Shown here one piece after another: positions 40-35,219 of a DNA stretch of 40,609 nucleotides. Under the pieces are notes generated by a model that worked only from the letters and a program-made list of their open reading frames with translations, was not told where the DNA came from and ran no database searches. Each line of letters begins with the position of its first letter. Position 1 is the first letter of the stretch. Both the position numbers and the translations under genes were made by a program. Origin of the DNA: a virus (taxonomy: Duplodnaviria; Heunggongvirae; Uroviricota; Caudoviricetes); the IMG/VR virus record IMGVR_UViG_2778261163_000009, one strand, 5' to 3'.

Positions 40-402
40 GGGGCTGATTCTGGATTCGACGGGATTTGCGAAACCCAAGGTGCATGCCGAGGGGCGGTTG
101 GCCTCGTAAAAAGCCGCAAAAAATAGTCGCAAACGACGAAAACTACGCTTTAGCAGCTTAATAACCTGCTTAGAGCCCTCTCTCCCTAGCCTCCGCTCTT
201 AGGACGGGGATCAAGAGAGGTCAAACCCAAAAGAGATCGCGTGGAAGCCCTGCCTGGGGTTGAAGCGTTAAAACTTAATCAGGCTAGTTTGTTAGTGGCG
301 TGTCCGTCCGCAGCTGGCAAGCGAATGTAAAGACTGACTAAGCATGTAGTACCGAGGATGTAGGAATTTCGGACGCGGGTTCAACTCCCGCCAGCTCCAC
401 CA
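40..402 (+). ncRNA. ssrA: tmRNA (SsrA), complete, ending in CCA
   Basis: Begins GGGGCTGATTCTGGATTCGACGGG, contains the tag-coding region and ends with the tRNA-like acceptor arm ...GGTTCAACTCCCGCCAGCTCCACCA; matches the enterobacterial ssrA sequence from memory. Confidence 0.9.
358..402 (+). repeat. Left copy of 45-bp direct repeat (ssrA 3' end); prophage attachment core (attL)
   Basis: ATGTAGGAATTTCGGACGCGGGTTCAACTCCCGCCAGCTCCACCA occurs identically at 35175..35219. Confidence 0.8.
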
Positions 403-411
403 AATAAATCA

Positions 412-445
412 AGGGGTTACGTGAAAGCGTAGCCCCTTTTTCTTT
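412..445 (+). terminator. Rho-independent terminator downstream of ssrA
   Basis: Stem AGGGGTTACG / CGTAGCCCCT followed by a TTTTTCTTT run. Confidence 0.6.
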
Positions 446-575
446 GGTAGTGGCGGCAAAATGGCGATAGCCATGGACTAGGGTTGGGTACACGCACATT
501 GCCCTCTATCCTTATGAGTGATCGCACACACGCCTCTACTTTCAAGCTATATTCTAATCTCAATATGAGGCTACT

Positions 576-1289
576 ATGGACTTCAACCTGAACAAAAAAA
601 TGCCAGTTAATAGATATCTTGTGATAATAGTTTTTGTCCTTTTCATCTTAGCCTGTATGCAGTTTATTTATCTTTGCCTTCGTTCATTAAGCATTGCCCC
701 AAACTATACGGGGACTGTAAGTGACATTATAATAGCTACAACAAATATTATTTTAGCTACCTACGCCGTTCGTGCATTCAAAAACTTATTTAAAGATAAA
801 CTATCCGATAATGCCATTAGTAAAATAGATACAGCATTGATGTCTCTCGATGATTGCATAGATAGTTTTTCAAGCTTATTTTTAAATATGACACTTATTA
901 AGATTTATAAAAACACTAATAACCCCAAGGACCCTCAGTTAGTTAAACAGCTCGATGAAGCAGCAAAAAACATTGAAAAAGCAACAAGTTCAGCCTACAA
1001 GGCAAGATCTATAATTGACTCATTAACTCGTTGGAATATAAGCTTAAACACAGAAAAAGGAATAAGACTAAACCAACTTACCACTGATGTTTTTGAGTTA
1101 GGCATGCAGGCAACAAATATGTATATCGCACTAATAAATGAAATAAACCCTAACTCCCCATACAACTCTTTAACTCATAGACCATTTGATGAGTTATTTA
1201 ACGAATTTAATGAAGAAAGGACCAGAGTTGAAGACGAAAGCAATGAATTAAAAGAGTTCTCTATTCATGAAATATTTAAAATCAAATAA
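576..1289 (+). CDS. Hypothetical membrane-anchored protein (prophage cargo, AT-rich)
   Basis: 237-aa ORF with a GAGG ribosome-binding site; hydrophobic N-terminal helix (LVIIVFVLFILACMQFIYLCL) then a charged, probably helical domain; lies between attL and ogr; no family recognised. Confidence 0.6.
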   Translation: MDFNLNKKMPVNRYLVIIVFVLFILACMQFIYLCLRSLSIAPNYTGTVSDIIIATTNIILATYAVRAFKNLFKDKLSDNAISKIDTALMSLDDCIDSFSSLFLNMTLIKIYKNTNNPKDPQLVKQLDEAAKNIEKATSSAYKARSIIDSLTRWNISLNTEKGIRLNQLTTDVFELGMQATNMYIALINEINPNSPYNSLTHRPFDELFNEFNEERTRVEDESNELKEFSIHEIFKIK

Positions 1290-1366
1290 GTTATTATAGA
1301 ATAATTTTAAAAAATCATTTGCATTCTTCTTGTGTCAAAAATCAAATAACTGTCTCGATATTATTC

Positions 1367-1388
1367 AAAACCCGCCAGCGGCGGGTTA
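1367..1388. terminator. Bidirectional hairpin terminator between the cargo ORF and ogr
   Basis: AAAACCCGCCAGCGGCGGGTT; perfect GC-rich stem with an A-run on one side and a T-run on the opposite strand. Confidence 0.6.
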
Positions 1389-1391
1389 GTA

Positions 1392-1607
1392 TCAGTAAAC
1401 TAATTGCTCCTGCATCCCTTTGGGATGCGGTGGGGCGGCACTGATTTTCTCGGGACGACAAACAGAACGAACAAAGGTTTCATGCGTTACAAACGTATGC
1501 CCACACTCAATATTAGTGCACTGATTGTAACGCTCTTTGGTTTGAGAGGAGACTTGAAAACTACTGCGAGTATGTGCGGCCTGACCACACAACGGACAAT
1601 TCATCAT
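1392..1607 (-). CDS. ogr: Late gene transcriptional activator Ogr (zinc finger)
   Basis: 71 aa, CPLCG...C..IEC four-cysteine motif, size and position as in P2 ogr, next to gene D. Confidence 0.85.
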   Translation of the reverse strand: MMNCPLCGQAAHTRSSFQVSSQTKERYNQCTNIECGHTFVTHETFVRSVCRPEKISAAPPHPKGMQEQLVY

Positions 1608-1675
1608 TTATCAACTCTCCTCATCTTTGCTATATTTACAATAATGATACACCATTATTCAATATTGAGAACCAT

Positions 1676-2776
1676 TTATTCCATCTCAAGATCACCAATC
1701 CTCACTTCAAGCTCAAGACTGGTCGTAAAACCGTTATCCGGGCTGACGGTATGTGTCAGAGTCGTAATGGTCCATTCCGCATCATCTATCGGCTGTTTAA
1801 AGCCACTGACCTTCACAGGCATTTCTGTGTAGAGGTCTGCCCGCCCTTCCGCCAGTTGTAGCGAGAATGACGCAACACCGCGTTGCAGGCGTTCCCACTG
1901 CATTTTCGCCGCTCGTTCAGCGTTGCCCCGGTTGGCATAGGTACGATTAAGTACCAGCACGTTTTCATCCGTACCCACCAGGTAATCGCCCTGCTTCGCT
2001 TCCGGCTCTTTCTTCTGCTTCTTAGTCCTGCGCTTACGCTTCACCGTGGTGCTTTCTTTCTTCGCGGGTTCGCGGGTATGCAACCAGCTGGCAATTACGC
2101 CCGTGTAGGCTCCGCGATCTGCCAGGGTAAAGCGGTGACTGTCGCCGTCCTTGCGTGTGATAGTGATCACCGGCAGTGGTTTACCGCTGGCGCTTTTACC
2201 CTGTCCCTGTCGGATAAATAACAGATTGCCATTTTTCACCGACGCAATAGCACCGTACTGGCGCGCCAACCGCATCAGAAAACTGCCGTCACTCTCATTG
2301 GTCTGGTCTATATGTTCCACGGGTTTATCTGACAGGTCTTTACCCAATGCCATCTTCAGTTTGTGCCGCGCAGCTATTTCCTTCACCACTTCCCCAACGG
2401 TGGTCTTGTGCCACGACTTTTCACGGCGGGTATTCAGCGTTTCACGAAAATCAGCACTTCGCGCCCGGATAGTCAGGCGGTCCGGTGCGCCAGTGTGTTC
2501 AATCTCGTCCACCGTGAATGCCCCTTTCGGGAAAAGCGGCTGCCCCTTCCAGCCCAGCGCCAGCGTAATGACCGCACCACGGCGCGGCAGCGCTATTTTT
2601 CCATCGGCGTCGTCCAGCTCCAGATCAAGCTGGTCCGCTTCAAAGCCCCGGTTATCCGTCAGCGTCAGCCTCATCAGGCGGTTATCCAGCACAGTGGTGA
2701 TATCCCTGCCCTCAATACTGATGCTGAATGCCGGAGTTTTGTTGCCTTTGTTAAGCAGTTCAGAGCTGAAATTCAC
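1676..2776 (-). CDS. D: Tail protein D (late control D protein)
   Basis: 366 aa; sequence and position (after U, before ogr) match P2 gpD. Confidence 0.85.
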   Translation of the reverse strand: MNFSSELLNKGNKTPAFSISIEGRDITTVLDNRLMRLTLTDNRGFEADQLDLELDDADGKIALPRRGAVITLALGWKGQPLFPKGAFTVDEIEHTGAPDRLTIRARSADFRETLNTRREKSWHKTTVGEVVKEIAARHKLKMALGKDLSDKPVEHIDQTNESDGSFLMRLARQYGAIASVKNGNLLFIRQGQGKSASGKPLPVITITRKDGDSHRFTLADRGAYTGVIASWLHTREPAKKESTTVKRKRRTKKQKKEPEAKQGDYLVGTDENVLVLNRTYANRGNAERAAKMQWERLQRGVASFSLQLAEGRADLYTEMPVKVSGFKQPIDDAEWTITTLTHTVSPDNGFTTSLELEVRIGDLEME

Positions 2777-3258
2777 GACAGCAGCCCTCCCACCGTTTTA
2801 CTGATATCACTTAAGGCAGATGTTGCCGTGTCCTGCAGATTATTCAGTTGCGTACTGAGATCACCGAACATATCGGACAGGGATTCATCCACCCGTTTGA
2901 GCGACAGGGTGAACTCAATCCGCCGCGGCATACCGTCGCGGAAAAACTCCGTTTTAGTCAGATTCAGTCCCTCAATCACATACATGCCGTAAATCGTGCC
3001 GCTGCCTTCAATCAGGGGCCATGCTTTTCCCTGTTCTGCCATCTGCTCCAGAGCCAGCAACGACAGCCTGCCGCCCGTTATCTCCGGCATAAGAACACCA
3101 GAAAGCGTCAGCATGTCGTTGTCCGGTCCCAGAAACTGCGTGGACGGACGACGGTTTACCCGGCTGTTTGCCGCATGTCGCCAGCTGCGTTGATACTGCA
3201 GTTCCTGATACGGAACGGTGCGCAGCATAAACACGTACAATCCCAGCACCATCATCAT
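2773..3258 (-). CDS. U: Tail protein U
   Basis: 161 aa; overlaps the D start by 4 nt; P2 gpU-like. Confidence 0.85.
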   Translation of the reverse strand: MMMVLGLYVFMLRTVPYQELQYQRSWRHAANSRVNRRPSTQFLGPDNDMLTLSGVLMPEITGGRLSLLALEQMAEQGKAWPLIEGSGTIYGMYVIEGLNLTKTEFFRDGMPRRIEFTLSLKRVDESLSDMFGDLSTQLNNLQDTATSALSDISKTVGGLLS

Positions 3259-6200
3259 GCGTCGTATCCCCCCTGATCGCTGTAGTTACTCCTGGCTTTT
3301 GCCTTCAGCCTGCGTTCACGTTCATCAAGCTGGCGTGCCACCTCCCGCGCAATATCCTGCGCACTTTGTCCTGGCTGCATCTGAATGATGATCTGCGTCG
3401 GTGCCTCAATCCGGTGAACGGGCGGCACAGTGGCTGCACGACTCACCATCGCTTCGCCGCCTTTCGCGGGAAGTGCCAAAGGATGCAACGGTGGAAGCTC
3501 TGCAGGCGCGGCAGCAACGCCCATCATTCCGGCAACAACGGCAGCCAGTGCAGCTGTATTTCTCCGGCTGGTCACATTTGCCGGGCCGTTAACAATTTCC
3601 GGCCCGTTTTCACCGACGATGCCAAACTGCCCGCGCGGGATATAGCCGCCGCTGTCATACATCCCCGCAAAGCCATATCCCCATGACGGAAAACCACCCG
3701 ATGGCATCATCACTTTGCCGTCTGCATTCACCGTCGCAGGTTGCTGACGCGTCACGCGTTCCGGCAGTTTTGCCTTTGCGGCCTCTTTACTGACAATGCC
3801 GAGTTTTTCCAGCAACCAGGATACGCCGGATTTCAGGGAGTCCAGCGGATGCATGACCATATTCAGCCCTTCCGCCAGTGCCTCCCCGAATCGCCGCCCC
3901 ATTGCCGCTGCACTCTGCAGTTCGGCAGAGGTCGACTTAACGGGCGTCAGCAGATCAGTAAACCAGCCCCACAACGCCTGTACTTTGTCGCCAATCCACT
4001 GGAACACGGGCTTAAGCGGTTCGAATGCTGCACTGACGGGACCTGCCGCCGCTTTGAATCCTTCCACCACGCCACCAAGAAATGCGGTGATGGGTTGCCA
4101 GTATTTCCAGACAACCAGCGCCACGCCCGCCAGTGCAGTAACCACAAGACCTATCGGACTGAGCAGAGCACCTAACAGACCAGATACGGCATACAGGGCA
4201 ACGCGCAGCATCGCCAGTGGACCAGATGCCAGTACTCGCAGCACCGTGCCTGCGGCGGCCAGTCCACCGCGTAGTGCTGCCAGTGGATTCATAAACATCA
4301 CAGCAACCGCACGTAAACCGGATAATCCAGACCGCAAAAGTGCAACCGGCGCACCTGCTACAGTTTTCAGGACATTTCCCGTCAGTGATGCCGTGCGGCG
4401 CAAAGACGACAACGGCGCAGTAAGTAAACCTGCGGCGTTGCCCGATGAAGCAAGCCCGCGTCGCAGCAGTGCCAGTGGTGCGCCAGCCAGCCAGGACAAC
4501 GCGCTGCTGGTTCGAGTTACTGCTGCCGTAACGGAAGGTAACGTTTTGATACCCAGCACAGAGAATCCCAGACGGATCACTGCCAGCGGCCCCAGAACTG
4601 CAGCCAGCGCCACCGCTAAGGTGCCGAGGCCTACGGTAACCGCAGCCACAACAGCCGCTACTTTCATCAGTGTGCCTGTCAGTTCCGGGTTAGCTTCCAC
4701 CCAGCGGCGCAACGCCCCCGTGATGCTTTTCACCGTGTACAGAATATCCATCAGCGGCTGGCGCAGCGTTTCGCCCAGGCTGCTGAAGGTGTTCTGCGCT
4801 CCGGTTTTGACCAGCAACCACTGAGCAGAAAGTGAGTCTTTGTTGATGTCGGATTCTTTCTGCATGGAACCGAGCGCATCATTGCCCGCTGTCAGCTTTA
4901 ACTGGCGCTGCAGTTCCGGCAGGTTGTTTGCCAGTTTCGCCGCGTCATCGCCAAACTCTTTACCAAACAACATGGTCATGGCAGACAGACGCTTGTCCTG
5001 CGGCAGTGCGTTCACCTTCTCCAGCACGCGCTGGATGGTTCCCATCGCATCCTTCGTCATCTGCTTTTCAATCACTTCAGGATTGAGTTTCAGCAGATTC
5101 ATCCCTTCAAAGAAACTCTTGCTTTGCATGGTGGCAATGGACAATTCACGCACCATCGCGTTTGCTGCACTGGCTGCAACCTCTGGCGCAGCGCCCAGTG
5201 TCAGAAAGGTGGAACCCAGCGCCGCCGCTTTACGATAATCCAGACGATCAGCCACACCGCCCAGGCGTTGCATGACATCAATGATGTCTGCCCCTTTCGA
5301 CATGGCGTTATCATCCAGATAGTTCAGCGCATCACCGAGCTGTTCAATATTGCGGGTAGGGATTTTGTAGAGCTGGGCGATTTTCCCCAGACTTTCTGAC
5401 AGTTCATCCGCTGGCAGCTCAAAGGCTGTTGCCGCCTTTGCTGCCGTACTGGCGAAGGCCAGCAGGTCACGTTTCTGGTCTTCCCAGCTGTCGTCAGGGT
5501 TTGCGACGTTCATGCGTGCACCACCTTCAACCAGTGCAGCGAAATCCACCGCACCGTTTTCCATCGGCAACTGTTCGCTGGCAGCCTTGATGGCATCCTG
5601 CATTTCATAAAAACGTGCAGTGCGGTTGCCATTATCGTCACGCAGACCATTGACCTGCTTTGCCACACCTTTCATGGCATCTTCTATGCTGGTATAGCTT
5701 TTTACTGCCGCCATCACTGGCGTCCCCATTGCCAACCCTGCAGCCGTGGTAGTGGCTCCGGCTCCTGCAATACGATCGCGCACCTCCAGCGAACGGGCAT
5801 AACTGGCACGCGCCGCATTCATCCTGCGCTGAGCTTCCCCCAGTCGCTTCAGCCGCGCCTCCTGTTTCGACAGTTCCTGGTTATAACGTGATGTTTCACG
5901 GGCTAAACGGGCAGTTGCTCCCGCATCATCTTTCGCAGAAATTCCCGCCCGGTACAGTTCTGCACGCACAAGCGCCGTTTGCTTCTGCAAATATTTTTGT
6001 TGTTCTTCCAGGCGTTGGACTGCCAGCGTTTGCCGACCTAAAGCCACAAGGTGCCGTTGTGATGGTTGTTCCATCGCCTCCAGCTCAGAGCTAAGCAAAT
6101 TAGCCTTCTGTCTGGCATAGTTCAGCCTGTCGCCTAACTTCTTGTTATCGGCCTGCAGCTTGCGAAATTTTTCCAGGCTGTTACCCGCCTGATTGAGTTG

Positions 6201-6332
6201 CTTTAATGCGTCACGGGAGTTTCTGATTGCGCCAGCCAGCTCTTTCGAACTGGCTTGTGCAGCACGGAATGGGCGGGTGAGTTTGTCAACCGCATTAAGA
6301 ATGACCTGCAGGCGCAGGTTGTTATCACTCAT
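3255..6332 (-). CDS. T: Tail tape measure protein T
   Basis: 1025 aa, coiled-coil N-terminus and Ala/Gly-rich hydrophobic central region; follows E/E'. Confidence 0.85.
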   Translation of the reverse strand: MSDNNLRLQVILNAVDKLTRPFRAAQASSKELAGAIRNSRDALKQLNQAGNSLEKFRKLQADNKKLGDRLNYARQKANLLSSELEAMEQPSQRHLVALGRQTLAVQRLEEQQKYLQKQTALVRAELYRAGISAKDDAGATARLARETSRYNQELSKQEARLKRLGEAQRRMNAARASYARSLEVRDRIAGAGATTTAAGLAMGTPVMAAVKSYTSIEDAMKGVAKQVNGLRDDNGNRTARFYEMQDAIKAASEQLPMENGAVDFAALVEGGARMNVANPDDSWEDQKRDLLAFASTAAKAATAFELPADELSESLGKIAQLYKIPTRNIEQLGDALNYLDDNAMSKGADIIDVMQRLGGVADRLDYRKAAALGSTFLTLGAAPEVAASAANAMVRELSIATMQSKSFFEGMNLLKLNPEVIEKQMTKDAMGTIQRVLEKVNALPQDKRLSAMTMLFGKEFGDDAAKLANNLPELQRQLKLTAGNDALGSMQKESDINKDSLSAQWLLVKTGAQNTFSSLGETLRQPLMDILYTVKSITGALRRWVEANPELTGTLMKVAAVVAAVTVGLGTLAVALAAVLGPLAVIRLGFSVLGIKTLPSVTAAVTRTSSALSWLAGAPLALLRRGLASSGNAAGLLTAPLSSLRRTASLTGNVLKTVAGAPVALLRSGLSGLRAVAVMFMNPLAALRGGLAAAGTVLRVLASGPLAMLRVALYAVSGLLGALLSPIGLVVTALAGVALVVWKYWQPITAFLGGVVEGFKAAAGPVSAAFEPLKPVFQWIGDKVQALWGWFTDLLTPVKSTSAELQSAAAMGRRFGEALAEGLNMVMHPLDSLKSGVSWLLEKLGIVSKEAAKAKLPERVTRQQPATVNADGKVMMPSGGFPSWGYGFAGMYDSGGYIPRGQFGIVGENGPEIVNGPANVTSRRNTAALAAVVAGMMGVAAAPAELPPLHPLALPAKGGEAMVSRAATVPPVHRIEAPTQIIIQMQPGQSAQDIAREVARQLDERERRLKAKARSNYSDQGGYDA

Positions 6333-6761
6333 CGTTGGCCCCGCTTCTCTGAATCGCTTTATACCGCCATTCCAGCACTTCGGTCAGCGGCATAACGTCA
6401 GTAACGGATGGCGGCCAGTGAAAAATGGTGGCGATATCTGCCACCAGATCGTCAACCGTCAGGCTGTCGGTAAACCGGCAAGCACCGACTTCTTCAACAA
6501 AAAAGTGACAACCTCAACCGACATGGCAGTGAGATCTGCCGGGTCCATCTCTGCAATTTCCTGTGCAGTCAGTGCCGGGCTGGAGATGCGGGGGATCACG
6601 GTCATCATCGCGTTCACATCCATATCCATAATGGCCTGCAGGCGTGTACCGCGCAGCGCACCGGACTGCGGTTTACGCAGCACAATTTCGGTGATTTCAG
6701 TTTTACCACGCATGATGGGAGTATCCAGTTGAATGGTCTTTTCAGTCTGCTTATCGCTCAT
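6325..6761 (-). CDS. Tail assembly chaperone E+E' made by programmed -1 frameshift
   Basis: Slippery heptamer T_TTT_TTG on the coding strand (+ coords 6498..6504) near the end of E; the -1 frame stays open to a TGA overlapping the T start codon (GATGAGTGA). Confidence 0.7.
6459..6761 (-). CDS. E: Tail assembly chaperone E
   Basis: 100-aa ORF immediately upstream of T; P2 gpE-like. Confidence 0.8.
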   Translation of the reverse strand: MSDKQTEKTIQLDTPIMRGKTEITEIVLRKPQSGALRGTRLQAIMDMDVNAMMTVIPRISSPALTAQEIAEMDPADLTAMSVEVVTFLLKKSVLAGLPTA

Positions 6762-6815
6762 TTTGCTGTCCTGTAAATTGGGTTCTGGCGCGGTATCCCG
6801 CGCCGTTCAGATAGA

Positions 6816-7331
6816 TCAGAGGCCGAGGGCGTTGCGGTGCGCTTCCATCAGGTCCACACCGTCCACAATTTCCACCATGTTGATAAGGTCCACTTCATAG
6901 AGCACCTCACCATTGATGGTCAGCTTCGCGTAGCTGTTGGTACTGGTCACTTTGGTGGTGTTGCTTTCGCCCGTCTTCCACTCGCCGGAATCCACTTCTT
7001 TGTGACGTCCACGCACCACAAGCTCCACGGCCTGCACTTCCCCGGTATCGTCACGCTGGATAGAGCCAGTAAAGCGCAGCTGGATGCCATCCACAGTGGC
7101 TTTGCCTATCTGCTTAAACAGCAGCAGTTCAGTACCACCAATGGAAAATTCTGTGTCCAGAGCACTGTCATCAAGCCCCAGATCCACATCCACCGCCCCC
7201 GGCATTCCGCCGCCGCGATACTTCTCATATTTGCGGGTGAATTTCGGCAGCGTCAGCGACTCAACGATCCCCTGCCAGTTGTTCCCGTCGTTAAACAGGT
7301 TCAGGTGTTTTAATTTGCGTGGTAAAGCCAT
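6816..7331 (-). CDS. FII: Tail tube protein FII
   Basis: 171 aa, P2 gpFII-like, downstream of the sheath gene. Confidence 0.85.
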   Translation of the reverse strand: MALPRKLKHLNLFNDGNNWQGIVESLTLPKFTRKYEKYRGGGMPGAVDVDLGLDDSALDTEFSIGGTELLLFKQIGKATVDGIQLRFTGSIQRDDTGEVQAVELVVRGRHKEVDSGEWKTGESNTTKVTSTNSYAKLTINGEVLYEVDLINMVEIVDGVDLMEAHRNALGL

Positions 7332-7340
7332 GTTGTCCCC

Positions 7341-8513
7341 TTACGCGCTGACCTGGCTGGAGAAATTCACCAGGTACTGATCGGTGATGCGCTGACGCAG
7401 CATCAGGTTTTCAAGTGGCGGCACTGGCGTGTAGTCGTAGTCGATGGTGAGCTTCCCGGCTTTCAGAGTATCTTTGTCGTTCACCGACTCATCCAGCCAG
7501 CAATCACCACCAATGAGATAGCCCTGACTGACCAGGCTGCGCATTTTGGCGCGGATACCTTCGATAATGTCGCGGGCCAACGACGGGTTCAGCGGTTTGT
7601 CCACCGCCCACATATGCGCTTCTGCCATTGTGTCCATAAGTACTTGCGCCGTGCGGGTGTAGTTTTCGAAGGCAAAGAGCGGGTCATCACTCAGGCAGCG
7701 GGAACCCCAGAAGCGGAAACCGTCTTTGCGGATAAGGGTGGTGACGTCGTTCTGGTTCAGCAGTCCCGCATCTGTTGCCGTGTCCTGCAGATCCCAGAAC
7801 ACATCAGCAGAAATTCCGGTGACACCGTTAACGCCCACGTTGGACAGGCTTTTGTGCCATCCGGTCTGCTCATCAATTTTGGCGCGCAGACCAAGCGCAC
7901 GGGCGGTGGCATAAGCCGTTGCTTCGGCATTCAGCACCGTGTCCCAGCCAGTAAAGTCGGGCCAGATCAGCATTCCTTCACGCTGACTGAAGTTTTCACG
8001 GTAAGTGATCGCCTCCTGCACTGTCTTGCAGCCATACGCTGACAGGTAAGCAAACCCACGCAGGCTTTGCGCCACGCTCAGCAACTCAGTAGCAACGGCT
8101 TTGTTATCGTGGCCTGGCACGCCGAGAATGCGCGGTTTAACGCCGAGCTGTGACTGTGCAGATAACAGAGCTTTCATGCCTGTTTTTTTACCTTCAGCAG
8201 TCACTGCGCCGATGATATTGGTCGTGGTTTCTTCTTCCGTTTCACCCTGCGGCACACGCACAACAACGGTCACGGGTTTTGCCTGGTCAGCGATGGCATC
8301 CAGCGAACGGGCCAGCGTGCCGGACTCACCCGCTTTACCGCTGGCAGTCAGCACATCAGTGATCAGCACGGGTTTATTAAGAGGAAACATTTTTGCATCG
8401 GCATCATCGCCCGTGCAGACCATACCCACGATGGCGGTGCTCACCGTGGTAATGGATCGGGTGCCTTCGTTGATTTCAACAACGCGCACCCCGTGGTGGT
8501 AATCCTGAGCCAT
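7341..8513 (-). CDS. FI: Contractile tail sheath protein FI
   Basis: 390 aa, P2 gpFI-like. Confidence 0.9.
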
Positions 8514-8655: not shown

Positions 8656-9225
8656 TCAGGGGGATTCATTGCTCTTATTTGCCGGAAATTTTCTATAAAT
8701 GGTAGAAACGCCTACATCAAAAATCAGTGCAATACGCTGTCTTGATTCTCCGGCCTCGAGTAAACGCCCAATCTGTGCCCACTGTTTGGTGGTCAACTTA
8801 GGACGGCGTCCACCTACTCTGCCTTTGGCACGAGCTGCAGCCAGCCCTGCCCTAGTACGTTCAACTATCAGTTCGCGTTCCATTTCAGCCAGGGCCCCCA
8901 TGACATGAAAAAAGAAACGGCCCATTGGGGTGCTGGTATCAATACTGTCAGTCAGGCTTCGGAAATTCACGCCACGCTGACGCAACTCTTCTATCAGCGT
9001 AACAAGATGCCGCATACTGCGCCCCAACCTGTCTAGCTTCCAGACAACCAGCGTGTCTCCTGCCGATAGTGTCCTGAGCAGTTTTTTCAGCCCCGGTCTG
9101 TCGGACTTAGTGCCACTGATTTTATCCTCAAAAATCCGCTCACATCCCGCGCAGTTCAGTGCATTACGTTGCAAATCGGTGTTCTGGTCATTTGTTGACA
9201 CGCGTACATAGCCAATAAGTATGAT
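8656..9225 (-). CDS. Gin/Pin/Hin-family serine DNA invertase; canonical start codon position is ATA
   Basis: Translation reads (I)LIGYVRVSTNDQNTDLQRNAL... and runs collinear with Pin/Gin through the C-terminal helix-turn-helix; the ORF track begins at GTG 9201, but homology continues 8 codons upstream to an ATA preceded by an AGGGGG ribosome-binding site. Confidence 0.8.
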   Translation of the reverse strand: MILIGYVRVSTNDQNTDLQRNALNCAGCERIFEDKISGTKSDRPGLKKLLRTLSAGDTLVVWKLDRLGRSMRHLVTLIEELRQRGVNFRSLTDSIDTSTPMGRFFFHVMGALAEMERELIVERTRAGLAAARAKGRVGGRRPKLTTKQWAQIGRLLEAGESRQRIALIFDVGVSTIYRKFPANKSNESP

Positions 9226-9249
9226 TATCCCCCTGAATAAAAACCGGGG

Positions 9250-25871: not shown

Positions 25872-25912
25872 CTTTCCTCCTATGACACCACAAGCAATAC
25901 TGTATACATAAC

Positions 25913-26024: not shown

Positions 26025-28439
26025 TTAATACAGGTTTCGCCACTTATCATCTTCCTGCAAACGCTGGTTCCGATAGAAGATACGCAGGCCTGCTCCTGAC
26101 GGAATACTGCCGCCGCGAAGGAGTAAATCGACCTCTTTCTCGCTGCCATTAAATCCTCTGGACTTCAGTTCATAGACGAGCTGCTGTCGCTGATGGTCTG
26201 TAATTCGCTGTTTGTAGTCTTTACGCCGTTTCGGTTTCACCAGGCGTAACCTTGCAGCCAGTTCCCGGCGCTCTTTTTTGCTCATACTGTGCAGGTAACC
26301 GTGCAACTCCTTGTCATCCATGCGGGTAATGTCCGTCCTGGTATCCCCATCAGCTGATTTGTCTTTCCCTTGTTGGTTCAAATTTTCAGCAAGGGGACAG
26401 TTATTGCCACGAGTCCAAGGGGCGCAAGCGCCCTGGTCGGCTGCCGCCTCCTGAACATCAACGGCCTTACGAACCATTTTCCACTTCACGGCATGAGTGC
26501 AGATCTTGCCCTCTGCAATAGGTGACCAGATGCCATAAATACGAATGCCGTGATCGCCATAGGCGGTCGGCTCTTCGTTGATTTCATAAGCGGTTCTGAT
26601 GAGGTGATATTTGCGGGGAACCAGTACGCCGCCCTGCTTCATGATGTAGGTGGCAAAACAACCAGCATCAGCAGCAGCCAGGATGGCATCAAGGCGTGGG
26701 TTATCCAGTACCGGCGCACCTGCTTTTTTGTCCCCCTGTTGCCTTGCCGCCTGACCAGCCAGCAATCGCAGTTCACGGTAAGCCTGACGCCCCGGAATGC
26801 CAAAGAAGCGGAATTGCTGAACACGATGCAGAGACGCCCAGGCATTAACGTATTCAGCATTATCACGCAGGGATTTCCCCGTTTCCTTGCTGATCTCGCC
26901 AGCCAGACCACGCCCGTCAATGTTCTTACTGATGTATTTCGCGATGTAGCTTGTTGGCGTTCCTTTGCGCGGGTTAATCAACTCAGACTTAAAGCGCGGC
27001 CCAGTGTTATTGCCCAGCTCCTCGCGGTCTTCACGGATGGCAAACTTACGCAGTAATGCAGTGATGGCACGGCGGTCTTTTTTGCGCATGAAACACAACA
27101 GGTGCCAGTGAACTGTGCCGTCATGATGCGGCTCAGCCACCCGCACGCCATACCAGCGCAACCCGGCTTTGTGCATCGCCTTACGAAATGCAGCAAACAT
27201 GCCGACCAGATAATCGCTGCTTTGTCTTACCGTCGCGTTTGTCCAGGTCGGGTTTGGTCTGCCGTTATTGAGCGTGGAATGGAAACGTGACGGACAGGTG
27301 ATGGTGTAGAAAACGGCGCAGTCACCGCGCATTTCCGCGATAAGCTCCAGACCTTTAACACAGGCCATCATCTCATTGCGGCGATGCGCCGGGTTGCTGC
27401 TGCTGGCGTTTACCACATCCTCCATGTCCAGCGTGTCGCCGTCTTCGTTCACCAGTTCATGAGAACGGAAAAACTCCAGCGACTTACGGCGCTGCTCACG
27501 TTTATGCATCACGGCTTCATAGCTGACATAGGGAGATGCTTTTTTGCTGACCAGGCAGACAGCACGCAACTGCTCTTCCCGCCATTCGCAACGCATCTTC
27601 CATAATTTCCGATACCACCAGTCGGCGCACAACATACGCGCCAGCGAACCCGGAATGAGTTCATAGGGCACGGGTTTACGGCGGTTTCTTTTCCGACGGA
27701 GTTGCTCAAACGCAGGAGGGATTACATCCAGACGCAGGGTTTCCGCTGCCACCTTTTCCCATGTCTTGCGGATTTCTTCTGGCTTAACGTCATCGGTGGC
27801 ATACAAATCACCACAAGCTGCATCAAGGCACATGCTCATATGCGCGGCAACAAGGGTAGACAGGCGCTTCACCTGATCCTGACTCATTTCAGGCAGGATC
27901 AGCAGGCCGTCCAGCCCTTCATGGCTTGCCATAAAGCGAAAAGAAGTGGATAGCTGACTCTCGCGTACATGCTCCAGTCGTTCCAGACATGGCTTAATCG
28001 TCTCACGCAAATAGCGGGAATAAGCCTTTGGCCTGCCCAGGCTGCTGAAGTATTCAATACGTTGCATCAGCGGCTTGCTGATATGGGAAGGCTGGGCGTT
28101 GACGTCCGCCAGAATGACCATATCCGGATTAAAACGCTGCTGCTCATGCGCCAGCTTTGCCCGACTAATGAGCTTATCCTGCTCGATTTCGCGCTGGACA
28201 GGATCACGGGATTCATTAAAGAAATAACGCTCCCAGACCTGATCACTCAGCGCCTCACGGCGCAGCTGTTCCTGCTCGTTATCGGCAGCGTACAGAGTGA
28301 TCAGGTTTGAAAGCGCAGAAACCGGCGCAACTTCCGCCGGGTCCAGATAAGGGTTAATGGCCTTTTTCGGGCTGCTCCATGAGAATGCTGCTGCGACCTC
28401 GTTAAAGCCGCTGCAGTTGTTCATATCAGCATGGCTCAT
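26025..28439 (-). CDS. A: Replication initiation protein A (rolling-circle nickase)
   Basis: 804 aa, P2/186 gpA-like. Confidence 0.85.
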
Positions 28440-29293
28440 GCACGCACTCCGTACACGGCAGAACTATCCACGCCACGCGAAGGATCAAATCCCACCCAGC
28501 AGCGCGGCCCGGAAACAGCGATGATTTCTGTTGCTGATTTACACTCGCCAGCTGCCACACCGATGCTGCGTTTTACCTTGATATAGTGGTGAGTAAAATT
28601 GCGATACAGCGAACGAATCAGGGATGTGTCACTGTTAGAAACAATGACCGGATGTCCTTCAGATGATCGATGTTCAAGAACGGATGCCAGGTGATACTGG
28701 TCATCTTCAGTGAAACCATCAGTGTGATAGCCGGAAAACGTACCGTCATAAGGCGGATCGCAATACACCACATCCCCCGCCTTCAACATCGCCAGCGTTT
28801 CATCAAAGCTGGCGCAGATAAACGTTGCCCGCTGGGCTTTTTCTGCAAATGCGCGAATTTCTTTTTCAGGGAAATACGGATTTTTATAATTACCGTAGGG
28901 AATATTGAAATGCCCGCTCTTGTTATAGCGACATAAACCACGGTAACCGTGACGATTGAGATACAGGAAATATACCGCTTTCATGAAATCAGTAATTTCA
29001 GTTGAGTAATTAAACTCCTGCCTTATGTTGTAATAAGCTACCTCCCTGTTTGCGATCTCAAATAAAACTCTGGCGCGAGATATAAACGATTCACAATCAG
29101 CGGCAACCTTTTTATAGAGGTTGATTAAATCAGGATTAATATCCGCAACCAGATAGCTTGGATAATCCGTCTCCATCATCACCGCACAGGAACCCGCGAA
29201 AGGTTCAACCAGTCGCGGGCCAGCTGGAAGGTGTTTTTTCAGTTCTGGCATAATGGCGGTTTTATTTCCCGCCCATTTCAGGATGGTGCTCAT
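28436..29293 (-). CDS. dam: DNA adenine methyltransferase (Dam family)
   Basis: [12 protein letters not shown]-terminus, DPPY catalytic motif ([12 protein letters not shown]); start chosen at the ATG with a GGAGGTG ribosome-binding site. Confidence 0.8.
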
Positions 29294-29592
29294 ACAGCAC
29301 CTCCGGCAATAACATATCCTAAAGCTTCTAATGGGGTTAATGGGCGAATTGATAGCATCACCCATTGTTCTGAAACTGCCATGACGTCATTAACCGGAAG
29401 CACATGAGAGATAACAGCGGCCCATTCCCTACCCGTAAATACGCCATGCTTCCATTCGCAAAGAGAAAGAACATCACCAACTTTATAGCCACGATCGTCT
29501 TTACGAAGTTCAGCCGTCTTTTGACCTGCAACCACAGCGTTGAAATACTTAGGTGCAATTTTTAATTGATGGATACGCACTGCCCTTGTCAT
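29290..29592 (-). CDS. Small early protein, ASCH/DUF3850-like
   Basis: About 100 aa from [17 protein letters not shown]; same GGAGGTGCTGT-ATG context as dam; overlapping stop/start. Confidence 0.5.
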
Positions 29593-30458: not shown

Positions 30459-30652
30459 TTGTTCCCCCGTTTTTTCGTAGATAGTTCTGCCAGCAATTCA
30501 TCTTGTGAACGGCACGGATGCCAGCGTTTACCATCCTCACCCATGATCCAGCCGTGACCGTAGTGCATTGCCGGGCTTTGTTTAACCAGCAGCGATGCAA
30601 ATGATGGTTCTTTCGTAAGCATAAGCACCTCACAGCAAACCGAATGAAGCAC
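30422..30652 (-). CDS. Hypothetical small early protein (position of 186 fil-like genes)
   Basis: 76-aa ORF overlapping both neighbours; true start uncertain. Confidence 0.35.
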   Translation of the reverse strand: MLHSVCCEVLMLTKEPSFASLLVKQSPAMHYGHGWIMGEDGKRWHPCRSQDELLAELSTKKRGNKWLLKALRRLFH

Positions 30653-31139
30653 CGAGGCCAGTCACGGTATCAACTGCACTCGCCATCGCAGGGTTAGCCT
30701 GTAAACGGGCCTGCAGTGAAACAGCAGCCAGCGCCATCAGTCGTGTTACAGAGTTAATGCTGCTGATAGCATCACGACGACCTGCACTGGTTTTTACATC
30801 GCCAGATACCGCACCTGCAGCAACACGCCCGATCTCTGCGGTTGCACTCATGACGTAATGCGGCAGTTTCTCTTTTGCTACCTCATTAATCGGTACACAT
30901 GGCAGGCAGTGAATCTGTGCCAGAAAACCATCTATCAGCGTTGAATCTTCAGTCAGATCGGTAAGCAGCCAGATTTCTGGCGCATTGAGCTGATGTGGTT
31001 GATCTGGGTTGAGTTTGTTTCGCAGAGTCTGGACATTCATTCCTGCACGTTCTGCCAGCTTCGCCATATTGTGACGAAGTGCAAAAGCTCTACAGGCTTC
31101 ATCAAAATGCTGGTGTTTGGAAATCTTATAATCAAACAT
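30630..31139 (-). CDS. cII: Lysogeny establishment activator CII (186-type)
   Basis: 169 aa, near-identical in length and sequence pattern to phage 186 CII (MFD..SKH.H.DEACRAFA.RHNMAKLAE...). Confidence 0.85.
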   Translation of the reverse strand: MFDYKISKHQHFDEACRAFALRHNMAKLAERAGMNVQTLRNKLNPDQPHQLNAPEIWLLTDLTEDSTLIDGFLAQIHCLPCVPINEVAKEKLPHYVMSATAEIGRVAAGAVSGDVKTSAGRRDAISSINSVTRLMALAAVSLQARLQANPAMASAVDTVTGLGASFGLL

Positions 31140-31171: not shown

Positions 31172-31414
31172 TCACTTACCAACAATGACGCGGAAGTTGG
31201 AATGACCGAGGGATTCACGGACCTGATCGGTTTTGTACATTAAATAACGCAGACTTACGCGGCCTTTGTTTTTTTCTTTCTTGACCATGTATTTAGCAAG
31301 CTGACCATGGTGAATTTTTTGATACACGGAGCCGCGGGAGATACCTTCCCATTCCGCGAACTCTGCAGGCGTAGCCATCTCTTTTGGTACACGAATTGAA
31401 ATATCAGTGCTCAT
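31172..31414 (-). CDS. apl: Excisionase / lytic-promoter repressor Apl (Cox-like)
   Basis: 80-aa helix-turn-helix protein, first gene of the lytic operon opposite cI. Confidence 0.75.
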   Translation of the reverse strand: MSTDISIRVPKEMATPAEFAEWEGISRGSVYQKIHHGQLAKYMVKKEKNKGRVSLRYLMYKTDQVRESLGHSNFRVIVGK

Positions 31415-31533: not shown

Positions 31534-32166
31534 ATGATACAGGTAAAGGCTGGAGAGAATACAGGGGGAAGAGAGGCTATCCATAGACTAATGGCAGCCT
31601 ATGATTTCAAGTCCAGACAGCAACTTTGCGATCACTTAGGCGCATCAAAAAGCACCATGGCAAACAGATACTTAAGAGATAGTTTTCCTGCAGAGTGGGT
31701 GATTCAGTGCGCCTTGGAAACAGGAGTTTCTTTACTGTGGCTAACCACCGGACAGGGAGAGCCAGGTCCAAACATTAAACCTAAAAAAAATATCAATTCC
31801 GTGAACTCCAGCAAGGTTGTACCTCTTTCTGAACTAGTATCTCCTGAAATTGACAAGGCGACTCTCAACGGTGGTTTATTGGTCGATGCTGGAAAAGCAA
31901 TCATTGATAGCAGCATACTCCCCTCAGACTCAAGCAACCTACTGCTGGTGACTACTTCTGGTGATTCTTATTTAATAGATCGCAACCAAACACCACCAGT
32001 AAATGGTATGTGGTTAGTCGATATCGACGGGATAAAAAGCATTGTTAAATTGACTCGGCTCCCGGGAAACAAATTAGTAGTGCATCAGGATGATTCATCG
32101 TTTGAGTGCGGTCTGGATGACATTGAGGTAGTAGGCCGCGCACTGAAAATCATTAAGAGCCTTTGA
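31534..32166 (+). CDS. cI: Immunity repressor CI (186-type)
   Basis: 210 aa; N-terminal helix-turn-helix and C-terminal region resemble 186 CI (..CALETG..L.WL.TG.GE... LPG.KL.V). Confidence 0.8.
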   Translation: MIQVKAGENTGGREAIHRLMAAYDFKSRQQLCDHLGASKSTMANRYLRDSFPAEWVIQCALETGVSLLWLTTGQGEPGPNIKPKKNINSVNSSKVVPLSELVSPEIDKATLNGGLLVDAGKAIIDSSILPSDSSNLLLVTTSGDSYLIDRNQTPPVNGMWLVDIDGIKSIVKLTRLPGNKLVVHQDDSSFECGLDDIEVVGRALKIIKSL

Positions 32167-32167: not shown

Positions 32168-33181
32168 ATGACCATCAGAAAACAGCCGAACGGAAAATGG
32201 TTGTGTGAGTGCTATCCCAATGGACGCAATGGCAAGCGCGTGCGTAAGCAATTTGCTACGAAAGGCGAAGCCATTGCGTTTGAAAGCTTCACAATGGAAG
32301 AAGTGAATAAAAAACCGTGGTTGGGTGAAAAGGATGATCGGCGACGCCTATCAGAATTAATTGAGCTTTGGTATTCCCTGTATGGTCAAACACTCGCAGA
32401 CCCCAAGCGCCTCATGGCGAAACTTAGAATTATCTGTAATGGTCTAGGCGATCCCATCGCCTCAGAACTGACAGCTGGTGACTTTACAAAATACCGCGAA
32501 GCACGGTTAAAAGGTGAAATACGAAATGAAGATGGCACACTTATGTCGCCCGTAAAGCCCCGTACGGTAAACCTTGAACAGCGCAATCTATCATCTGTGT
32601 TCGGTACATTAAAAAAACTAGGACACTGGTCAGCACCAAACCCGCTGGCAGGACTTCCGACCTTCAAAATTGCCGAAGGTGAGCTGGCTTTTCTTTCCAC
32701 GGACGAAATCAAGCGCCTGTTGGCGGCATGTGCTGAATCTCAAAACCCTAGCTTACTAATGATTGCAAAAATATGCCTAGCTACTGGCGCACGGTGGAGT
32801 GAAGCCGAAAATCTGCAGGGCCACCAAATATCGAAATACCGAATTACTTATACAAAAACAAAAGGCAAGAAAAACAGAACAGTACCCATATCACAGGAGC
32901 TGTATGACGAACTCCCAAAGAACAGAGGGAAGTTATTCTCACCATGTAGAAAAGCCTTTGAACGAGCAGTAAAACGGGCAGGTATAGATCTACCGGATGG
33001 CCAATGCACCCACGTGCTGCGACATACGTTTGCTAGCCACTTTATGATGAATGGCGGGAACATACTTGTGCTAAGGGATATTTTGGGACATTCGGATATC
33101 AAGATGACCATGGTTTACTCACATTTCTCACCAGATCATCTTGAAGATGCCGTTACTAAGAACCCATTAAACTTGATATAA
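32168..33181 (+). CDS. int: Tyrosine integrase (P2/186 type)
   Basis: 337 aa; C-terminal catalytic region HVLRHTFAS...LGHSDIKMTMVYSHF with the R-H-R-Y tetrad; directly follows cI. Confidence 0.9.
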   Translation: MTIRKQPNGKWLCECYPNGRNGKRVRKQFATKGEAIAFESFTMEEVNKKPWLGEKDDRRRLSELIELWYSLYGQTLADPKRLMAKLRIICNGLGDPIASELTAGDFTKYREARLKGEIRNEDGTLMSPVKPRTVNLEQRNLSSVFGTLKKLGHWSAPNPLAGLPTFKIAEGELAFLSTDEIKRLLAACAESQNPSLLMIAKICLATGARWSEAENLQGHQISKYRITYTKTKGKKNRTVPISQELYDELPKNRGKLFSPCRKAFERAVKRAGIDLPDGQCTHVLRHTFASHFMMNGGNILVLRDILGHSDIKMTMVYSHFSPDHLEDAVTKNPLNLI

Positions 33182-33194
33182 AACAGCCAAAATT

Positions 33195-34952
33195 CTATTT
33201 CATCAAGTAATCCAATTCATCCTTCATAGGTATAACTTGCTCATAAAGTCTATGGTAGGATTTTCCAATTGCCCCCCTAAATTGAATAAGTTTAGGGGAA
33301 AAGCTACCGATATTAATAATATGTTCTTGCGCTATACCAGGATATGGATCGATAAAAATAATCTCTGTCATACCTAACTGATAAGCTTTTTTAGCACAAA
33401 GTTCACAAGGGCTAGCTGTAGTATATAGTTTCCCTCCATTAATACCGACCCCACCATATTTGGCCAATTGCAAAAAAGCATTCTCCTCTGCGTGCAATGC
33501 ACGGGTATGCACTTGATTCCCTTTCTTTTCATCATCAAGGCTGTTGTGAATATCTTTAAAACAATATGGCAAATTAAGTCCTTTAAAAACAGTAGAACTT
33601 GAATCACTCGCCCTTATTTTTATTAAATTTTCTTTAACTTTACTCCTAAATTTTGTATTACTTCGTTCGTACAGGCTATATGTTCCCTCATCAAAATCAT
33701 GCAATAACCCATCAAATGACCTCATAGAACAAGGAACTTGACCTTTTGCTACATCGTTCCAACCAACTGACTTGATAGAGTTATCATTATCTGTCACAAC
33801 CGCCCCTACTTGCCTAGATATACATCCAGAATTTAGTTTTACAGTATATGCAACTTGCATAACCCTTTCCATGGCGGTAGGAGATATTAATCCAGGGTGT
33901 TGCATTAATGATACATACCACGCAATTTGTGCTTTGAGAAAGTTATTATTATCAAATTCTTTTTTAGGGTTAAAAAAATGTATATCTGAAATTTCAATGC
34001 ATTTTTTTACATTAGGATTAGTAAGATGATTATACTCGCCATCTCCTTTACCAGATTCTTCATCATTAATTTTTTTTATCTGTTCCTCTGAGAACTTATG
34101 TAATTTCTTTAAATATCTGGTTCGATGTTCATCTGGTGCATTTATAGAAACCAGATGGAATGCAGCATATCTATCTTTGAAGAATTTAGCTTCATACGGG
34201 TTACGTATCGCATCAATGACTATATACGCTTTATTATTCTTTACTTTTCTAATTATTTTAATAACACGATTAATTGTTTCAGGTAAATGAAAAACAGCCT
34301 TTGGAATAAAGTCTTGATTTTCATAATCTACATCAACCTTCCCTATTCTTCTAATTGACTTTCCTGCTGACTGATATAGCTCAATATATAAACCTGGCTC
34401 TAGTTCATTTAATTCCCTTTTAAAATCCCGTGTAAATTTTCGAGTAAGAGTTAATATCCTAATAAAGGTATCTTTCCCCCTGCCTTTAAAGTCAATCTCA
34501 TCATCATGATTAAGAAGATTTTTTATCACCTTAAGATATTTTATCTTCAACAAACTTTTAGCGAACACACCATTAACAACCAGTTTCTTAGCTGCCTTAA
34601 AGGAAATCGAATTTTCTTTTTTATCGGGGATTTTACTTGCAGAAAACTGAATGAATTTAGCTAAGGCCGATGGAGATAAAAGGAGCAAATATATTGAAAT
34701 GAGATCACTGACCTTTATCGAATAGAAGTTCTTCCAATGAGTCTCTGCAAAATTTTTTACTATTTCATAACGCCGCAAATCCAATCCTTTATAATACTCA
34801 GCCAAGACGTTACTATCTGGAAAAGATATTTCTTTTTGTTCTAAAATATTTGCTGCAGTAGTACATCCTGAGCCAGTTCTCCCAGTTAAACCAATAAGAA
34901 TAAATTGACTATTTTCTAAAAAAAGCTCACTAATAAATTTGTGTTCTCTCAT
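33195..34952 (-). CDS. P-loop NTPase/kinase-like plus zinc-dependent cytidine/deoxycytidylate deaminase fusion (AvcD / dCTP-deaminase-like defence protein)
   Basis: 585 aa; N-terminal Walker-A-like ILIGLTGRTGSGCTT; C-terminal deaminase signature HTRALHAEENA ... ASPCELCAKK (H-A-E and P-C-x-x-C zinc ligands); AT-rich; sits between int and attR. Confidence 0.6.
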   Translation of the reverse strand: MREHKFISELFLENSQFILIGLTGRTGSGCTTAANILEQKEISFPDSNVLAEYYKGLDLRRYEIVKNFAETHWKNFYSIKVSDLISIYLLLLSPSALAKFIQFSASKIPDKKENSISFKAAKKLVVNGVFAKSLLKIKYLKVIKNLLNHDDEIDFKGRGKDTFIRILTLTRKFTRDFKRELNELEPGLYIELYQSAGKSIRRIGKVDVDYENQDFIPKAVFHLPETINRVIKIIRKVKNNKAYIVIDAIRNPYEAKFFKDRYAAFHLVSINAPDEHRTRYLKKLHKFSEEQIKKINDEESGKGDGEYNHLTNPNVKKCIEISDIHFFNPKKEFDNNNFLKAQIAWYVSLMQHPGLISPTAMERVMQVAYTVKLNSGCISRQVGAVVTDNDNSIKSVGWNDVAKGQVPCSMRSFDGLLHDFDEGTYSLYERSNTKFRSKVKENLIKIRASDSSSTVFKGLNLPYCFKDIHNSLDDEKKGNQVHTRALHAEENAFLQLAKYGGVGINGGKLYTTASPCELCAKKAYQLGMTEIIFIDPYPGIAQEHIINIGSFSPKLIQFRGAIGKSYHRLYEQVIPMKDELDYLMK

Positions 34953-35174
34953 TTCGCACCTGTTACGTTATAACACAAGTTTCTTCCATGTTGTATTTAT
35001 TAGTATTTATTAAAAAACAAGAAATTGCAACATAGCGGCAACAATACACACACCAAGAAAATGGCGGCAACTTGGCGGCAGAGCTTTAAAAACGTATAAA
35101 ACGGATAAACACAAAACAATACCAACCAACTGTTTTTGAAAACAAATTATTGTTTTCATTATAATATAAATGGT

Positions 35175-35219
35175 ATGTAGGAATTTCGGACGCGGGTTCA
35201 ACTCCCGCCAGCTCCACCA
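35175..35219 (+). repeat. Right copy of 45-bp direct repeat (ssrA 3' fragment); prophage attR and boundary to the next island
   Basis: Identical to 358..402. Confidence 0.8.

Follow-up and report, generated by a model that had tools for sequence, protein, structure and literature searches.

The 40,609-nucleotide (nt) stretch of DNA described here (the window; IMG/VR record IMGVR_UViG_2778261163_000009, positions counted from its first letter) carries near its left end an intact gene of transfer-messenger RNA (tmRNA), ssrA, and farther to the right a second copy of the 3' end of this gene, which is followed by the gene of a P4-family integrase. Between the two copies lies a prophage of the P2 family, related to the Escherichia phage Cartapus (Peduoviridae, Elveevirus cartapus, NC_070909) and to Fels-2, the prophage of Salmonella Typhimurium LT2 (Felsduovirus). 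The DNA to the right of the second copy belongs to an element of a different kind, an island with a P4-type integrase. The features from which the arrangement can be read are listed below; the attachment sites are called attL and attR at the two ends of the prophage, attP in the phage and attB in the phage-free chromosome.

40-402, + strand: intact tmRNA gene ssrA (ARAGORN; Rfam RF00023, 295.8 bits, full length)
358-402, + strand: attL core, the left 45-bp copy, which completes ssrA; identical to the attP core of Cartapus and Fels-2
411-448, + strand: intrinsic terminator after the regenerated ssrA, phage-supplied (terminator scan; conserved in the Cartapus attP and the Fels-2 end)
450-469, + strand: P' arm, where two putative sites of the Int arm type, GTGGCGGCA and ATGGCGATA, stand in tandem (conserved in both Cartapus and Fels-2)
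32168-33181, + strand: prophage integrase Int (Pfam Int_N and Phage_integrase; PHROGs)
35061-35080, + strand: P arm; its putative sites of the Int arm type are ATGGCGGCA and TTGGCGGCA (conserved in both Cartapus and Fels-2)
35175-35219, + strand: attR core, the displaced 45-bp piece of the 3' end of ssrA; it runs on into the island flank just as it does in genomes without the phage
35255-35290, + strand: former ssrA terminator, stranded behind the displaced fragment (terminator scan; present likewise after ssrA in the phage-free strain 89-3156)
35385-36614, + strand: P4-family tyrosine integrase of the island (Pfam Arm-DNA-bind_3, Phage_int_M and Phage_integrase)

A repeat search of the window found a direct repeat of 45 nt with 100% identity between the copies at 358-402 and 35175-35219, as had been claimed in the initial annotation of this DNA. 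A 23-nt sub-pattern of the repeat had two exact occurrences in the window, against 0.00 expected from shuffled sequences. The end of the repeat coincides exactly with the CCA terminus of ssrA, a gene for which ARAGORN gave the tag peptide ANDENYALAA. The unit between the repeats is 34,817 bp long, and the limits of the prophage can be drawn at 403-35219 or, equivalently, at 358-35174.

The identical 45 bp are present in Cartapus, where they are located between the ogr-side and the int-side cargo genes. Alignment showed that the Cartapus attP consists of the left arm of the attR of the window (approximately 35050-35174), the core and the right arm of attL (403 to approximately 470). In the Fels-2 prophage record, this core and these arms are likewise present at the ends. 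The attB of the phage-free strain 89-3156, in turn, aligned as host left flank, core and the sequence which follows 35219 in the window. The 45 bp and the two arms, which are split between attL and attR in the window, are thus joined in the attP of Cartapus and Fels-2, and this is the picture expected for a textbook Campbell insertion. Judging from these junctions, the attR core is the copy that completed ssrA prior to the insertion of the phage, and the last 45 bp of the present ssrA would come from the phage. The putative arm-type pattern, RTGGCGRYA, occurs in tandem at 450-469 and singly at 35061-35069, where it is followed by the near-match TTGGCGGCA at 35072-35080; these sites resemble the complement of the annotated arm consensus of phage 186, YAYCGCCAYTY. 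In the P arm there is also a sigma-70-like match, TTGAAA-18-TATAAT (11/12), at 35136-35165 on the + strand, which points across the displaced ssrA fragment to the integrase gene of the island, and which has weaker counterparts at the same place in Cartapus and Fels-2. The total of promoter-like matches in the window equalled the shuffled expectation, and the match at 35136-35165 may be a simple reflection of the AT-rich P arm.

The int gene of the prophage lies, as described initially, at the end distal to the intact ssrA, with one cargo gene (33195-34952) between it and attR. The initial description was also correct in placing a second integrase, of the P4 family and unrelated to the first, just past the right repeat. 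Its open reading frame (ORF) opens at 35343, but the protein aligns to IntA of Escherichia coli K-12 from its own residue 15, so the true start is likely to be at 35385, 166 bp past the repeat. This integrase scored 440.6 bits with NCBIfam NF007246 (cutoff 434), and it is 48% identical to IntA of the K-12 element CP4-57 and, along its full length, 34% identical to P4 Int (E 2e-82). BLASTP detected no similarity between the prophage Int and the island integrase (E=1.5).

A comparison with the ssrA loci of related strains, which had been proposed as a check, was done with a set of 5,426 complete E. coli genomes. For the phage-free state we used a synthetic junction as query, in which window positions 1-402 were joined to 35220-36200, and at least 80% query coverage was required. 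This junction, leading from ssrA to the P4-type integrase gene, was found in 947 of the 5,426 genomes, with 100% identity among the matches listed; in these phage-free genomes the island integrase directly follows ssrA. When strain 89-3156 was compared with the window by blastn, it was 100% identical over 1-402 and 99.9% identical over 35175-40609, and nothing matched in between. The tandem attR junction (P arm, ssrA fragment and island flank) occurred in 63 complete genomes, and the attL junction, together with the gene of a 237-amino-acid (aa) protein described below, in 10-12 independent complete E. coli genomes. The 45-bp query was found at 5,762 places in the 5,426 genomes, meaning that a few per cent of the strains have an extra long ssrA fragment. 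As the island-only junction is common, and identical to 100% among the matches listed, we infer that the island was present first and that the phage is a recent arrival. In a tandem array, as a rule, the element that arrived last adjoins the intact gene, and the phage does lie beside the intact ssrA.

The affiliation of the prophage was determined by comparing DNA and protein sequences. In blastn comparisons, most of the length of the prophage DNA was approximately 96-97% identical to Cartapus; the identity to Fels-2 was 77-86%, and a megablast comparison with 186 showed no similarity. Protein alignments gave, in the order Cartapus, Fels-2, 186 and P2, identities of 94%, 90%, 56% and 40% for Int, 100%, 100%, 33% and 21% for Apl (compared with Cox in the case of P2), 51%, 58%, 33% and 31% for CI (compared with C of P2) and 99%, 90%, 59% and 60% for the capsid protein; CII was 95%, 92% and 69% identical to the proteins of Cartapus, Fels-2 and 186, respectively. 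Judged by these values, the element can be assigned specifically to the Fels-2/Cartapus type. The term "186-like", which was used in the initial annotation, fits the regulatory architecture, inasmuch as the sequence contains a switch of the 186 type (CI, Apl and CII, along with a DinI/Tum-type gene preceded by a LexA box) and not a C/Cox switch of the P2 type.

The part of the island which is included in the window contains, besides the integrase gene, the following genes.

36653-37069, + strand: ORF of 138 aa, island cargo (no Pfam match)
37141-38907, - strand: Response_reg_2 protein of 588 aa, response regulator-like (RR-like) (Pfam)
38891-40609, - strand: HEF_HK/HATPase_c protein of 572 aa, histidine kinase-like (HK-like) (Pfam)

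In three complete relatives (600468, 89-3156 and EC5502) the island is composed of int, the 138-aa ORF, the RR-like/HK-like pair, the insertion sequence IS3 and a 5'-truncated ygaQ, beyond which glaH-lhgO-gabD follow, and the length of the island remnant is approximately 5.5 kb. The RR-like gene is intact in the window, whereas two of the three relatives have it as a pseudogene. In each of L001, L003 and L008, the three relatives examined, IS3 stands directly after the HK-like gene and abuts the 5'-truncated ygaQ, and ileY, the attB of 186 in K-12, is not annotated there. No AlpA-type excisionase is annotated in the island of these three relatives, and no further ssrA 3' fragment was found in L001 between the island and gabD, using the 23-nt pattern and a 16-nt pattern with up to 3 mismatches. 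The satellite genes of P4 (sid, delta, psu and the alpha primase gene, the set being taken from the P4 reference annotation) are absent from the part of the island in the window and from the whole island in the relatives. From these data the island can be regarded as a decayed remnant, which is probably immobile. A gene pair of the RR-like/HK-like kind has been described as a predicted two-component-like system, and it has been linked to restriction-modification (R-M) systems as well as to paraMORC ATPases (PMC8011034). The C-terminal approximately 400 aa of the RR-like protein have no annotation, and neither the RR-like nor the HK-like protein had a match in PADLOC 2023.

Taken together, we consider it very probable that a temperate phage of the Fels-2/Cartapus type inserted at the 3' end of ssrA beside an older island with a P4-type integrase. 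In the resident state, the remnant of a CP4-57-type P4-integrase island would have stood directly downstream of ssrA. The phage attP, bearing a 45-bp copy of the ssrA 3' end, would have recombined with the 3' end of the gene by the action of Int, which is a tyrosine integrase, the crossover taking place somewhere inside the 45-bp block; no exact point can be assigned, the two copies having the same sequence. At attL, the copy brought by the phage would have completed ssrA and supplied its own terminator, and at attR the previous 3' end would have been moved 34.8 kb away, still abutting the resident P4-type integrase gene. Owing to the identity of the two copies, excision by Int and Apl would restore the wild-type ssrA. 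Within the 3' end of ssrA, the part used is probably not the same for the two integrases: the 45-bp block for the phage enzyme, and approximately 14 bp for the CP4-57-type enzyme.

It must be noted that some observations weigh against this interpretation. The window stops inside the island, whose far end lies beyond it. In the relatives the island lacks its own ssrA fragment, and its integration at ssrA is therefore deduced from its position and from homology with CP4-57. The proposal in the initial annotation that two elements integrated sequentially at the same tmRNA site is supported, and the probable order could be specified (island first, phage second). The other point concerns CI, which is merely 51-58% identical to the CI proteins of Cartapus and Fels-2. 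This indicates a different immunity type, thus knowledge of regulation cannot simply be transferred from these two phages.

The events could also have taken place in the reversed order, with the phage inserting first into a naive ssrA and the island entering later into the 45-bp fragment displaced to attR. The displaced fragment includes the last approximately 15 nt, which are used by CP4-57-type integrases, and the opposite physical order of the two kinds of elements does exist elsewhere: in the sequence L014 a Fels-2-type P' arm has been joined to a P4-type junction, CCCCCAGC-CCACCA. However, Campbell logic puts the newest element by the intact gene, and in the window this is the phage. Moreover, the configuration with the island only is the common one (the 947 genomes mentioned above), and the island is decayed, as seen from the IS3 truncation and the RR-like pseudogenes in relatives, while the prophage is intact and, with 10-63 genomes, rare. 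With all this considered, we regard the reversed order as very unlikely.

Even smaller is the probability that we would assign to a composite element, in which the prophage and the P4-integrase segment were mobile as one unit or formed a P2-helper/P4-satellite pair. The prophage and the island are adjacent, and P2-family phages can act as helpers for P4-like satellites. Yet the genome of Cartapus, a free phage, comprises 33.4 kb and does not include the island segment, the 947 genomes have the island but not the phage, and in the relatives the island has no genes annotated as P4 satellite genes, merely int, the 138-aa ORF and the RR-like/HK-like pair before IS3. Both a P4-like satellite and a composite element were thus rejected on the gene content and on the separate occurrence of each part. 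As for an assembly artefact, i.e. a collapsed or chimeric join which duplicated the ssrA 3' end, misassembly can create repeats in general, and nothing specific speaks for it in the window. Against it, the attL and attR junctions of the window recur in many complete genomes from independent assemblies, and the flanks of both junctions correspond to the arms of the attP of an actual phage, Cartapus. The assembly error, which had been named beforehand as the finding that would overturn the arrangement, was not borne out, and we hold it to be extremely improbable. Insertion of the phage beside an island already in place is the interpretation on which the rest of this description is based.

The genes and sites of the prophage other than those of integration are as follows.

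576-1289, + strand: orphan cargo gene of 237 aa between attL and ogr
1392-1607, - strand: ogr/B-type late-gene activator (Pfam Ogr_Delta; annotation of the relative L001)
1676-8513, - strand: tail genes D, U, T (tape measure), E/E', FII and FI (ORFs; collinear with L001 and Cartapus at 96-97%)
8656-9201, - strand: Gin-like DNA invertase (phrog_125)
8656-11169: invertible tail-fibre module including the invertase (tail-fibre PHROGs; Caudo_TAP; the same module is annotated in Cartapus and Fels-2)
9278-9308 and 11139-11169: inverted repeats of 31 nt bounding the tail-fibre segment, containing TTCTCCCAAACC
9250-9771, + strand: alternative fibre tip within the invertible segment
9771-10379, + strand: alternative assembly gene within the invertible segment
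10523-20505, - strand: tail fibre H, baseplate I/J/W/V, tail completion S/R, lysis and head L/M/N/O genes (synteny with L001, Cartapus and Fels-2)
20648-23448, + strand: large terminase (P) and portal (Q) (ORFs; L001 and Cartapus annotation)
23457-24155, - strand: DUF4145 cargo gene in the portal-to-replicase hotspot (Pfam DUF4145; Cartapus gp01)
24258-24316, - strand: cos site (identical to bases 1-59 of Cartapus, annotated there as putative cos site)
24445-25056, - strand: orphan cargo gene of 203 aa beside cos (phrog_26391, function unknown)
25439-25930, - strand: putative SOS operon consisting of a LexA box, a 62-aa ORF and a DinI-family gene
25439-25672, - strand: DinI-family gene (Pfam DinI)
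25915-25930: LexA-box consensus CTGTTTATATTTACAG, the sole CTGT-N8-ACAG match in the window
26025-28439, - strand: replication endonuclease A (ORF, L001 annotation, Pfam)
28436-29293, - strand: Dam methylase (ORF, L001 annotation, Pfam)
29290-29592, - strand: DUF3850/ASCH gene of 100 aa (Pfam DUF3850)
30630-31139, - strand: CII (similarity, PHROGs)
31172-31414, - strand: Apl/Cox-like excisionase (similarity, PHROGs)
31534-32166, + strand: CI (similarity, PHROGs)
33195-34952, - strand: predicted anti-phage dCTP deaminase, cargo gene between int and attR (NF041025, PADLOC, Pfam)

The set of P2-type genes for structure, lysis and replication (Q P O N M L ... FI FII E T U D ogr, A) is complete, all prophage ORFs are open, and they are collinear with those of the annotated Cartapus, Fels-2 and RefSeq prophages. 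The 34,817-bp unit apparently represents a complete P2-family (Peduoviridae) prophage, which may be viable. Toward int, the order of the genes is replicase A, Dam, DUF3850, DksA-like, DUF5347, CII, Apl, CI and Int; judging from the annotation of near-identical relatives, the prophage should also have Fil and DUF2732 genes. All 59 nt of the cos region match Cartapus (59/59), and the ends of the Cartapus genome map to 24316/24317 of the window, where the blast alignment breaks. The arrangement of the LexA box and the DinI-like gene parallels the p95/LexA/tum arrangement of 186, and the prophage is probably SOS-inducible. In the tail-fibre module, the alternative tip and assembly genes are oriented opposite to the expressed H and G.

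The cargo of the two elements is separate, in agreement with the initial annotation: the dCTP deaminase, the orphans and other genes belong to the prophage, the 138-aa ORF and the RR-like/HK-like pair to the island. In P2-like phages the region between portal and replicase is a hotspot of variable genes, and a less populated hotspot lies between the integrase and att (PMC13586616). Close relatives of the prophage differ exactly at the variable slots; the slot near cos is occupied by genes for an AAA ATPase and an S8 peptidase in 600468, by a DUF6953 gene and others in EC5502, and by the DUF4145 and 203-aa genes in the prophage and Cartapus. The dCTP deaminase is predicted by the NCBIfam equivalog NF041025 (420.5 bits, cutoff 400), by the dCTPase model of PADLOC (E 2e-146) and by the Pfam domain dCMP_cyt_deam_1. 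The DUF4145 protein shows weak similarity to PD-T7-4 of PADLOC (E 9e-7) and has an N-terminal CxxC...CxxC motif. The DUF3850 gene sits on an insertion of 283 bp (29306-29588) between the DksA-like gene and dam, which is missing from Cartapus, L001 and L008, where the blast alignments have gaps. This insertion is flanked by duplicated copies of GGAGGTGCTGTATGA, which comprises a ribosome-binding site and overlapping stop and start codons, and the duplication suggests cassette-like gene gain by recombination at translational-coupling junctions.

The two orphan genes, which are 23 kb apart in the prophage, are the sole lead with some novelty in this locus. The 237-aa protein had no match in Pfam, PHROGs, PADLOC and NCBIfam, and its homologues form just 12 clusters. 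Its AlphaFold2 model (predicted local distance difference test score, pLDDT, 78) has two N-terminal hydrophobic helices, predicted to be followed by a helical bundle; a Foldseek search of the PDB with this model returned generic four-helix bundles, none of them at E<=0.001. The homologues of the 203-aa protein form 18 clusters, none of which is annotated, and its N-terminus, as read from the sequence, is hydrophobic. A BLASTP hint at paralogy of the two proteins (E 0.004) was rejected by profile-profile comparison (probability 0.2%).

The metagenomic contigs L010-L012 represent another enterobacterial lineage. After their ssrA comes a Fels-2-type P' arm, then the gene of a 238-aa homologue of the 237-aa protein. 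Next to these there are a scrap of cos-proximal DNA, the gene of a homologue of the 203-aa protein (75% identical) and a fused 3' fragment of a P4-type integrase gene; the two orphan homologues side by side are at 6001-7629 of L010. By its sequence, this arrangement appears to be the decayed remnant of the same kind of array, from which almost all phage genes were lost and the two orphans kept. The retention of the two orphans side by side, seen in this single lineage, suggests a benefit to the host and selection. Both orphans occupy variable slots of P2-like phages where defence genes accumulate. That the pair consists of uncharacterised phage-exclusion or defence genes under host selection is a tentative idea, which we find possible but rather unlikely.

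A different stacking was seen in L013-L015, which belong to a third lineage and where a CP4-57-like island stands between ssrA and a decayed Fels-2-like element. The latter has a 238-aa gene, a split int and a dCTP deaminase gene, and the 238-aa homologue and the deaminase occur again across attP. The array was read in L014 from the intervals 7800-7890 and 16620-16717: the scar with CCCCCAGC-CCACCA is fused directly to the Fels-2-type P' arm, and at the end of the CP4-57-like island there are genes for DUF932, antirestriction, RadC and CbeA/CbtA proteins. The sequence past the attR of the decayed Fels-2-like element resembles the region upstream of intA of K-12, and the locus may be a triple array. 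With the reversed stacking of L013-L015, both orders occur in nature.

The main arrangement described here is already known, and near-identical loci are annotated in RefSeq. What the analysis adds is the exact delimitation of a probably active Fels-2/Cartapus-type prophage with its attL and attR, and the assignment of the neighbouring P4-type integrase, which is not a phage gene, to the remnant of an older island; this has little import beyond annotation. The locus exemplifies known principles, namely the completion of a tRNA-like gene (tDNA) by phage sequence, tandem stacking at ssrA, a site in frequent use, and the exchange of cargo in the hotspots of P2-like phages. In the Islander collection 125 tandem tDNA arrays were found, and the tmRNA gene was the most enriched integration target (PMC4383910). 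Of the two properties in the strict array definition of the same study, the prophage has both; the island has an integrase, in the relatives it has no fragment of its own, and its far end lies beyond the window.

It is instructive to compare the locus with the known systems. Cartapus has a 45-bp attP core and a cos site identical to those of the prophage and shares with it the DUF4145 and 203-aa genes near cos. The genes flanking attP are different: a putative exonuclease and a RES-domain protein are encoded there in Cartapus, the 237-aa orphan and the dCTP deaminase in the prophage. The two also differ in the tail-fibre segment, and the DUF3850 insert is missing from Cartapus. Fels-2 has the same core, arms and orientation (ogr by the intact ssrA, int at the far end), and an invertible tail-fibre module with a Gin/Cin-like invertase, as in the prophage. 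Its host is Salmonella, whereas the host of the prophage is E. coli, and it has no cargo between ogr and att or between int and att, where the prophage has one gene on each side. Phage 186 (Eganvirus) has in common with the prophage the layout of CI, Apl, CII, Fil, DksA-like, LexA-controlled DinI/Tum-type and B/ogr genes; it likewise integrates at the 3' end of a tRNA-like gene via a long block of identity, and its Int arm-type motifs are similar. Its target, however, is ileY with a block of 36 bp, in contrast to ssrA with 45 bp. The tDNA fragment in the attP of 186 is oriented oppositely, relative to int, to that of the prophage, and it follows from this orientation that in 186 lysogens int would adjoin the intact gene.

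The island can be compared with CP4-57 of K-12, which has the same chromosomal position, directly 3' of ssrA and before ygaQ-glaH, and an integrase of the same family and domain architecture. CP4-57 is 22 kb long and has AlpA, whereas the island is a remnant of approximately 5.5 kb in the relatives, with other cargo (the RR-like/HK-like pair) and truncated by IS3; the K-12 locus comprises the 22-kb CP4-57, ileY and a ygaQ of intact length. At the attR of CP4-57 there is a 14-bp imperfect pseudo-ssrA (psaA, CCGCCAGC-CCACCA), whereas the island in the relatives has no attR fragment and no excisionase. According to PMC10107115, excision of CP4-57 leaves ssrAΔT357 and inactivates trans-translation in K-12; excision of the prophage described here, by contrast, would give back a wild-type gene. 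Integration of Fels-2 and SopEΦ in ssrA is stated in PMC3448106 (citing Pelludat 2003). A precedent for the locus is the ssrA of Salmonella LT2, for which Table 1 of PMC10107115 (citing Williams 2003) lists Fels-2, with a P2-type int and leaving an intact ssrA 3' end, and Stm27X, with a P4-type int, so that the gene and the two types of element are those of the window.

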